A stretch of 64,000 nt of DNA from Eledone cirrhosa (Eukaryota): assembly GCA_964016885.1 (NCBI GenBank), contig OZ024750.1, positions 39,556,001 to 39,620,000 of the forward strand. The letters are read 5' to 3'. Positions 46,796 to 49,800 of this stretch are shown here, one piece after another (positions within the stretch are counted from its first letter, which is position 1; each line of letters starts with the position of its first letter). The notes under the pieces were generated by a model. It was not told the DNA's origin, ran no database searches, and was given only the letters and a program-made list of their open reading frames with translations. The position numbers and the translations under genes were made by a program.

Positions 46796-46800
<5 letters not shown>

Positions 46801-49800
46801 CAAATAACGAAACGAAATTAAATTTCGTTTCGTTTGTAACTCACTTTTGTATGACTGACGCTTAAACAATTAAGTTAAAGATGTACATCCATATATGTAT
46901 ACTGAAATACTAGTATGTATATGAATACACACACGTATACATATGTAGATGTACCAAGTTTTTTCACTGGTCACTTTACTGTGAGTGGCCAGCTATTCTG
47001 TATGTAAACACACAGACAAACCGGTTTTTAGAGTCATACTGGTTTTTGAGGAAACACCTTTCCTCTATTCTCCAGAAAGCCAGACAAGGAATATTGAACT
47101 AGTTTCGTTGTTGTTACAACTCATCAGCAATATTTACCTATCTTCCGGCCTCTCTAGAGAATCGTAAAAGCACATATCGTTATATGCTTTTTCTATGAAA
47201 ATTAGTAGTGGGCAGACTAATTTGCATAGAGTGTGAGTAAGTACCGGTTCAACGGAGACGATAAAAACAAATAACGAAACGAAATTAAATTTCGTTTCGT
47301 TTGTAACTCACTTTTGTATGACTGACGCTTAAACAATTAAGTTAAAGATGTACATCCATATATGTATACTGAAATACTAGTATGTATATGAATACACACA
47401 CGTATACATATGTAGATGTACCAAGTTTTTTCACTGGTCACTTTACTGTGAGTGGCCAGCTATTCTGTATGTAAACACACAGACAAACCGGTTTTTAGAG
47501 TCATACTGGTTTTTGAGGAAACACCTTTCCTCTATTCTCCAGAAAGCCAGACAAGGAATATTGAACTAGTTTCGTTGTTGTTACAACTCATCAGCAATAT
47601 TTACCTATCTTCCGGCCTCTCTAGAGAATCGTAAAAGCACATATCGTTATATGCTTTTTCTATGAAAATTAGTAGTGGGCAGACTAATTTGCATAGAGTG
47701 TGAGTAAGTACCGGTTCAACGGAGACGATAAAAACAAATAACGAAACGAAATTAAATTTCGTTCTAAAAACCGGTTTGTCTGTGTGTTTACATACAGAAT
47801 AGCTGGCCACTCACAGTAAAGTGACCAGTGAAAAAACTTGGTACATCTACATATGTATACGTGTGTGTATTCATATACATACTAGTATTTCAGTATACAT
47901 ATATGGATGTACATCTTTAACTTAATTGTTTAAGCGTCAGTCATACAAAAGTGAGTTACAAACGAAACGAAATTTAATTTCGTTTCGTTATTTGTTTTTA
48001 TCGTCTCCGTTGAACCGGTACTTACTCACACTCTATGCAAATTAGTCTGCCCACTACTAATTTTCATAGAAAAAGCATATAACGATATGTGCTTTTACGA
48101 TTCTCTAGAGAGGCCGGAAGATAGGTAAATATTGCTGATGAGTTGTAACAACAACGAAACTAGTTCAATATTCCTTGTCTGGCTTTCTGGAGAATAGAGG
48201 AAAGGTGTTTCCTCAAAAACCAGTATGACTCTAAAAACCGGTTTGTCTGTGTGTTTACATACAGAATAGCTGGCCACTCACAGTAAAGTGACCAGTGAAA
48301 AAACTTGGTACATCTACATATGTATACGTGTGTGTATTCATATACATACTAGTATTTCAGTATACATATATGGATGTACATCTTTAACTTAATTGTTTAA
48401 GCGTCAGTCATACAAAAGTGAGTTACAAACGAAACGAAATTTAATTTCGTTTCGTTATTTGTTTTTATCGTCTCCGTTGAACCGGTACTTACTCACACTC
48501 TATGCAAATTAGTCTGCCCACTACTAATTTTCATAGAAAAAGCATATAACGATATGTGCTTTTACGATTCTCTAGAGAGGCCGGAAGATAGGTAAATATT
48601 GCTGATGAGTTGTAACAACAACGAAACTAGTTCAATATTCCTTGTCTGGCTTTCTGGAGAATAGAGGAAAGGTGTTTCCTCAAAAACCAGTATGACTCTA
48701 AAAACCGGTTTGTCTGTGTGTTTACATACAGAATAGCTGGCCACTCACAGTAAAGTGACCAGTGAAAAAACTTGGTACATCTACATATGTATACGTGTGT
48801 GTATTCATATACATACTAGTATTTCAGTATACATATATGGATGTACATCTTTAACTTAATTGTTTAAGCGTCAGTCATACAAAAGTGAGTTACAAACGAA
48901 ACGAAATTTAATTTCGTTTCGTTATTTGTTTTTATCGTCTCCGTTGAACCGGTACTTACTCACACTCTATGCAAATTAGTCTGCCCACTACTAATTTTCA
49001 TAGAAAAGGCATATAACGATATGTGCTTTTACGATTCTCTAGAGAGGCCGGAAGATAGGTAAATATTGCTGATGAGTTGTAACAACAACGAAACTAGTTC
49101 AATATTCCTTGTCTGGCTTTCTGGAGAATAGAGGAAAGGTGTTTCCTCAAAAACCAGTATGACTCTAAAAACCGGTTTGTCTGTGTGTTTACATACAGAA
49201 TAGCTGGCCACTCACAGTAAAGTGACCAGTGAAAAAACTTGGTACATCTACATATGTATACGTGTGTGTATTCATATACATACTAGTATTTCAGTATACA
49301 TATATGGATGTACATCTTTAACTTAATTGTTTAAGCGTCAGTCATACAAAAGTGAGTTACAAACGAAACGAAATTTAATTTCGTTTCGTTATTTGTTTTT
49401 ATCGTCTCCGTTGAACCGGTACTTACTCACACTCTATGCAAATTAGTCTGCCCACTACTAATTTTCATAGAAAAAGCATATAACGATATGTGCTTTTACG
49501 ATTCTCTAGAGAGGCCGGAAGATAGGTAAATATTGCTGATGAGTTGTAACAACAACGAAACTAGTTCAATATTCCTTGTCTGGCTTTCTGGAGAATAGAG
49601 GAAAGGTGTTTCCTCAAAAACCAGTATGACTCTAAAAACCGGTTTGTCTGTGTGTTTACATACAGAATAGCTGGCCACTCACAGTAAAGTGACCAGTGAA
49701 AAAACTTGGTACATCTACATATGTATACGTGTGTGTATTCATATACATACTAGTATTTCAGTATACATATATGGATGTACATCTTTAACTTAATTGTTTA

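Follow-up and report, generated by a model that had tools for sequence, protein, structure and literature searches.

A head-to-head hammerhead retrozyme array in Eledone cirrhosa with two fixed outer end sites and probable priming of both target strands on one RNA

Results and discussion

Anatomy of the array

The window analysed here is a stretch of 64,000 nt of the Eledone cirrhosa genome (assembly GCA_964016885.1, contig OZ024750.1, positions 39,556,001 to 39,620,000), and all window positions refer to this stretch. From 46794 to 50262 it contains a head-to-head array, composed of two arms of a 467-bp hammerhead monomer (2.08 and 5.35 copies), with (TA)n on both sides. Monomer position 1 is window 48166, the base immediately downstream of the predicted cut. 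The 7.4 monomer copies are identical to each other except for one base (48541). The features of the array and its immediate surroundings are the following:

46520..46767 (start approximate), plus strand: 3' end of a Hydra-type Penelope element, which terminates at the site A of that element and is followed by the TA run that harbours the array
46767..46796: left (TA)n run serving as target; its final three bases also belong to the site-B end
46794..47763, minus strand: left arm of 970 nt (2.08 monomers), with its 5' end at monomer 268 and its 3' end at 303 (site B)
46794..46867, minus strand: 74-nt tail (monomer 230–303, the interval from site A to site B), lacking at the other outer end
46806..46834: 29-nt hairpin within the tail (monomer 263–291), recurring in every monomer
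47092..47132, minus strand: type I hammerhead motif, left arm
47559..47599, minus strand: type I hammerhead motif, left arm
47763: head-to-head junction with one shared base (T); monomer 268 joined to monomer 65
47763..50262, plus strand: right arm, 2500 nt, 5.35 monomers; 5' end at monomer 65, 3' end at 229 (site A)
48130..48170, plus strand: type I hammerhead motif, right arm, predicted cut 48165/48166; further copies at 48597, 49064, 49531 and 49998
48166..48632, plus strand: monomer used as reference, from one cut to the next; length 467 nt, GC content 35%, longest open frame 57 aa in sense and 62 aa in antisense direction
50262..50306: right (TA)n target run, starting at the last base of the right arm

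The original prediction had placed the array at 46796..47830. Its right limit is in fact at 50262 and the period is 467, but the description of the arms was accurate. They diverge from the junction, each with its ribozyme-sense 3' end against a (TA)n run (46767–46796 and 50262–50306), and the end sequences had been quoted correctly. The arms are non-integer multimers (2.08 and 5.35 monomers) and stop at different monomer positions, 303 and 229, neither of which is the cut site. The left arm was also said to break in the hairpin, and its 5' end (monomer 268) does fall inside 263–291. The hairpin does not connect the arms at this junction, where the overlap is 1 nt. A target-site duplication would be masked here by the pure TA flanks. 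The array is a real, young, non-coding retrozyme insertion of a known kind.

Elsewhere in the window a stop-free frame of 1208 aa on the minus strand (22278–25901) with endonuclease, reverse transcriptase and zinc-finger matches represents a LINE. Long frames resembling LINE ORF1 and ORF2 were seen in several copies (30393–35081, minus strand; 56868–62428 and 63096–64000, plus strand). There is also a minisatellite with units of roughly 32–38 bp (53760–54990) and a unit of roughly 75 bp in three copies (50895–51110).

Hammerhead motif and classification

Seven intact type I hammerhead motifs are present in the array, one per full unit. At the gathering score no Rfam match was obtained in the window; the match of the motif to HH9 (E=2.6e-7, 37.7 bits) lies under the gathering score of 52. 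Stem III of the hammerhead is a loopless palindrome, a compensatory stem II variant occurs in one subfamily, and the cleavage position is a G in just 2 of 299 copies. Self-cleavage and a circular RNA form of the element are predicted; the editing marks described below bear indirectly on the circular form.

Metazoan retrozymes were defined in PMC7229834, where it is hypothesised that circles are the templates of tandem cDNA, with Penelope-like elements as helpers; a Penelope origin is favoured in bioRxiv 10.64898/2026.07.22.740005. In the accounts of these two sources drawn on here, non-LTR retrozymes of metazoans are likewise short, AT-rich, non-coding tandem units with one type I hammerhead each. 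The Eledone monomer has a low GC content (35%) and no frame >62 aa, and the arrays consist of monomer sequence throughout, with no LTR pair. At 467 bp it is 17 bp above the range of 150–450 bp quoted there. It is not an autonomous Penelope-like element, as a frame for reverse transcriptase and GIY-YIG endonuclease is lacking (none >62 aa), even though the manner of insertion is alike.

An abundant family and its samples

With 4,976 exact matches of the ribozyme core in the 3.0-Gb genome, this is an abundant retrozyme family. We examined three sets of loci, all on one contig. The unbiased set comprises the 27 arrays, without exception, to which the first 100 listed ribozyme-core matches belong, a selection blind to the ends. 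The B-picked set consists of 60 loci carrying 61 B ends, taken from the first 100 listed of about 2,300 (those not already in the unbiased set) and reaching up to 90.5 Mb, and the A-picked set of 15 loci with an A end and no B match nearby.

A sister retrozyme family was also encountered (L012, L052, L057, L092, L095 and L100), with a period of approximately 420–430 and 62–70% alike in parts. It has the same stem III and, in the six copies inspected by eye, two end sites. Among the sequencing runs listed as containing the monomer there was none of RNA. Of four runs of unrecorded kind, one gave a single contig of 497 nt, equal to one monomer plus 30 nt; a circle or a collapsed tandem would both fit. 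Twelve other head-to-head joints, in X1, may derive from the same sample as the assembly, and neither they nor the contig enter the counts given here.

Two fixed outer ends, one per arm

Of 44 outer (3') ends in the unbiased set, 43 fall at site A (monomer 228–234; 19 ends) or at site B (301–304; 24 ends). The two sites are 74 nt apart. Forty of these 44 ends adjoin TA, and the last 1–3 bases of each end site are common to the TA run. The arbitrary start points and permuted ends that had been proposed are excluded by this result. As outer ends occur at two fixed sites inside the monomer, the two end positions in the window are no evidence of a circle.

Another part of the original prediction, that both broken DNA ends served as primers at (TA)n, is supported: 17 of the 27 arrays have two long arms, and all 17 are head-to-head. 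Fifteen of them combine one A with one B end; of the other two, L048 is A+A and L007 has an end that is assigned to neither site. Hence, where both ends of a two-arm array are at a site, the pairing is A+B in 15 of 16 cases (p=2.6e-4). We refer to this as the A+B rule. Among the 10 single-arm arrays, three conceal an opposite arm of 12–17 nt which comes from the other site. Eight of the ten single-arm insertions end at B, suggesting that B primes first.

The same rule appears in the picked sets. Opposite the 61 B ends we found 45 A ends and 0 B ends; 12 had no second arm and 4 were interrupted or ran off the locus edge. The 45 pairs include 38 with long arms (one of these a segmental duplicate) and 7 with one tiny arm. 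The A-picked loci gave B opposite in 8 cases, 5 single arms, 1 unassigned end and 1 composite. This composite (L209:4644-7383) has four segments with A at both outer ends, and is probably made up of two neighbouring insertions whose facing B ends were lost at the hairpin. The window locus is the standard A+B pair of its family.

At other loci nine candidates for a target duplication were found (19–52 nt, mostly TA), of which the duplication-like flanks of L083 (52 nt) and L056 (33 nt) are convincing. With regard to the check which had been suggested, the arrays sampled on this one contig show frequent head-to-head inversions and TA microhomology, but ends that are not permuted.

Inner ends and junctions

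The point at which the two arms join is arbitrary, unlike the outer ends. Their inner starts lie within 10 nt of each other in only 2 of 60 cases and are uniform by a KS test (p=0.33). Arm lengths are uncorrelated within arrays (rho 0.08, n=51). In 47 of 51 arrays the B arm passes site A and continues into sequence which is also copied by the A arm; the median arm has only about 1.1–1.2 monomers. Microhomology of at least 3 nt occurs at 14 of 42 insert-free junctions versus 13 of 150 simulated ones (p=2e-4). Extra letters were seen at 18 of 60 junctions, some of which may be artefacts of nearby substitutions. These observations fit two cDNAs which stopped independently and then became joined, and do not fit a fold-back.

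Two mild preferences exist. The hairpin holds 21 of 151 inner ends (p=0.005), so the break in the hairpin, which had been noted at this locus, is only mildly typical of the family. A further 16 of 151 inner ends are found no more than 30 nt after the cut (p=0.03), and this excess may mean that some templates were linear.

Repeated copying of one monomer

Partner arms differ from each other by a median of 0.5%, compared with 4.6% to other arrays. The partner arm is strictly the nearest sequence in 29 of 47 arrays, tied in 6 and not the nearest in 12. The cut site is crossed by 113 of 142 arms, 45 of them crossing it twice, and the length is unchanged in 297 of 299 crossings. Fourteen different consensus sequences were obtained from the 15 arrays with at least three full units, and the single units depart from the consensus of their array by 0–0.8%. 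So many consensus sequences among internally uniform arrays speak for frequent single-monomer bottlenecks.

Changes fixed within an array were counted over 103 arrays by three definitions. A>G on the sense strand exceeded T>C by 14 to 3 (of 30 changes) in the first of these and by 39 to 13 (of 94) in the largest set, where 33 to 13 remained without L078 (p=0.002); with the strictest definition the difference was 16 to 9 (of 48) and not significant (p=0.11). Single-copy changes, which arise after insertion, are symmetric (A>G 22 and T>C 23 of 249). The 5' neighbours of 36 A>G sites are T in 17, A in 14, C in 5 and G in 0 cases, the absence of G being significant (p=0.0025). The 5'-neighbour preference of ADAR across animals (PMC9989829) matches this context. 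A preference for a 3' G was not significant at the A>G sites of the larger set (p=0.28). By their type and context the sense-strand A>G clusters suggest editing-type, ADAR-like marks.

Four array variants were checked throughout the genome for privacy. A cluster of five changes in L077 has 4 genome matches, all in L077 itself: 1 in the A arm and 3 in the B arm. The pattern of L078 has 3 matches, which are its three tandem copies. For the variants of L031/32 and L045/46 privacy was ruled out (70 matches in 7 loci for one and 286 for the other); these two are small lineages. L006 has three A>G changes in common with L077 across their overlap, so that a source missing from the assembly is possible. 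The most likely explanation for the same private cluster standing in register in every unit is that one edited monomer fed all copies, in L077 those of both arms. If the units of a linear multimer had been edited one by one, such a repetition would not be expected.

The window array carries no private edit and its consensus equals that of L038. For this locus the circular template is therefore inferred from the family. The circular template postulated by the original prediction gains from the locus-private A>G clusters in register in sister arrays, which indicate that one monomer was copied repeatedly, and nothing from the end positions in the window. The double priming was right and the circle is probably right, but for the wrong reason.

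Later changes of copy number

Some arrays bear traces of later events. In L045:2338-7606 one arm has A or G at monomer position 111 in a pattern of period 3, and the other arm has A throughout; later recombination or a trimer template may have produced the pattern in L045/46. L050 shows a pattern with a period near 7, and repeated unit pairs occur in L041, L054 and L087. Unequal crossing-over is the simplest cause of such higher-order patterns and alters the copy number in some arms. Very long single arms were observed in L099 with L202 (>37 monomers) and in L050 with L201 (approximately 31). Multimer length had been taken as a sign of rolling-circle copying. However, crossing-over also lengthens arms, and arms of at least 30 units are not in themselves proof of a rolling circle.

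Penelope relatives and a possible helper

Ends of Hydra-type Penelope elements behave in a similar way. They have two sites 85–90 nt apart, and in each of the 6 two-arm cases (L057, L075, L076, L199, and window 36941–37378 and 46094–46493) one arm ends at the first site and the other arm at the second. These pairs come from two other hammerhead-bearing end families that are tied to Hydra-type reading frames. Further Hydra-type ends with a hammerhead motif of their own lie in the window at about 46520–46767 and at 18825–19280.

L199 has a frame of 745 aa (L199:2889-5123, minus strand) with RWK-like and DKT motifs, which are given for the Hydra clade, an inserter into (TA)n, in PMC8557442. No Pfam or PDB sequence match was found for this frame; its assignment to Hydra is based on the motifs together with 38% identity to a fragment that itself matches GIY-YIG weakly. 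L199 and L169–L198 belong to a young Hydra-type family with intact frames of 745–755 aa and copies 98–99% identical. This family is a candidate protein source, and its link to the retrozyme as a helper is putative. No coding element with monomer sequence turned up among 60 GIY-YIG loci, one Hydra-type 3' region and 30 Hydra-type endonuclease ends (a small sample of >10,000 candidates), nor did two Penelope proteins and GIY-YIG as queries reveal an element sharing monomer sequence. The Penelope helper is therefore a putative one.

A model for the insertion and its alternatives

We consider it likely that a Penelope-type enzyme nicked both strands of the (TA)n target and primed both ends on one, probably circular, monomer RNA. 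According to this model, tandem transcripts would cut themselves and would then be ligated to monomer circles; as a single stem III is unable to close, cleavage would probably proceed in double hammerheads. A Penelope protein, likely a Hydra-clade dimer, would bind near the hairpin between sites A and B and introduce staggered nicks. One 3' end would prime at B and the other at A, each with 1–3 nt of TA microhomology. Both cDNAs would run round the circle and halt at unrelated points, after which the two cDNA ends would be joined via short microhomology or a patch. Unequal crossing-over would later shift the copy number in some arms. A more specific form of this model is that a Penelope dimer grips one circular RNA at the hairpin and starts two rolling circles at once, each nicked strand having a fixed start site to itself; to us the case for this is evenly balanced.

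The same two-site priming on both strands could also have taken place on a linear, uncleaved multimeric transcript, the arms growing later by unequal crossing-over. The shortness of the median arm, the slight accumulation of inner ends shortly behind the cut and the recurrence of higher-order patterns in long arms are consistent with this, and unprocessed RNA is the main Poseidon substrate in vitro (PMC11167929). However, monomers of such a transcript are expected to be edited independently, yet L077 and L078 repeat a private cluster in every copy, L077 even in both arms, and the single-monomer bottlenecks implied by the 14 consensus sequences among 15 uniform arrays argue in the same direction. 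We regard a linear multimer as unlikely. Repeated private edits would likewise result if one linear cleaved monomer was re-used by end-to-end template jumps, but jump scars are lacking, with 297 of 299 cut-site crossings having the same length. If instead each enzyme subunit had its own RNA molecule, a partner arm that is not the nearest sequence, as in 12 of 47 arrays, would be easily understood; against this stand the private cluster in both arms of L077 and the A+B rule, which is simplest on one RNA. Both versions appear highly improbable.

Published accounts of the inverted arm and the one-sided tail of Penelope elements invoke resolution by an endonuclease for the tail (PMC8557442) or self-priming (PMC3846280). 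Applied to the Eledone arrays, a self-priming fold-back would yield a palindromic DNA which is then resolved asymmetrically by the endonuclease, leaving a tail on one side. A few junctions do lie in natural palindromes or hairpins (L066, L084, L104, L108), and the enrichment of inner ends in the hairpin agrees with it. As a general route it is largely refuted by the unrelated inner starts, by arm lengths without correlation and by an A>G bias on the ribozyme-sense strand where the antisense strand would be needed, and we judge it very unlikely. Finally, a satellite might have been amplified and inverted at the DNA level, by recombination or break repair without RNA. Higher-order repeats in long arms would suit such a process, which is refuted for the origin of the insertions by the dispersal of the loci, the A+B rule, ends that are fixed and lie at TA, the duplication-like flanks of L056 and L083 and strand-biased A>G; it stands for later length changes only and is otherwise hardly conceivable.

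Two-strand priming by a Penelope-type enzyme on one RNA also bears on wider questions. The origin of the tandem and inverted structures of Penelope elements and of their one-sided tail is called unexplained in PMC8557442, and that Penelope-like enzymes reverse transcribe retrozyme circles into tandem DNA is only a hypothesis in PMC7229834. For both questions the Eledone family gives a sharp prediction: one site per strand and one RNA molecule per insertion. If true, a dimer starting two rolling circles would account for the head-to-head arms and the tail on one side throughout the Penelope-like elements, and the ADAR marks preserved in the two arms would prove from the genome that transposition uses retrozyme circles as its template. 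In the literature searched on retrozymes, Penelope twin priming, ADAR and rolling-circle hammerhead RNAs we found neither the A+B rule nor the editing marks, although Figure S9 of PMC7229834 and the supplements of the preprint may bear on this.

Comparison with known systems

The class of the element and its general anatomy were already known, and the mechanism suggested here is sharper than in print. Compared with the descriptions of metazoan retrozymes in the main accounts of PMC7229834 and bioRxiv 10.64898/2026.07.22.740005, the head-to-head arms, fixed internal ends, A+B rule and editing marks are additional. The short stem III resembles that of the amphibian ribozymes which, according to the same two sources, act as dimers.

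Endonuclease-bearing Penelope-like elements, above all the Hydra clade, are described in PMC8557442 and PMC3846280 with an inverted 5'-truncated arm, a one-sided tail, (TA)n targets and a hammerhead near the end, as here. The tail has 74 nt in the retrozyme and approximately 85–90 nt in the local Hydra-type elements, versus 30–40 nt in the published ones. It is presented as optional in these publications, whereas the Eledone family follows a near-strict rule of one site per arm. In vitro, Poseidon PAc (PMC11167929) also has two fixed internal starts flanking a tail, cuts and extends both strands of an AT-rich target and is predicted to be a dimer. Its templates were linear only, no start-site difference was seen between the strands, and pairing in one event is not given in the main text. 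Unlike the Hydra-type Penelope elements, the window family has no reading frame and its arms are multimeric.

L1 twin priming combines a start at the poly(A) with a variable internal site; its arms come from separate parts of the RNA and the inversion is joined by microhomology. Priming by both target strands and an inversion joined by microhomology are common to L1 and the retrozyme. In the latter, however, both starts are fixed and the arms overlap in 47 of 51 arrays, which places it outside the definition of L1 twin priming.
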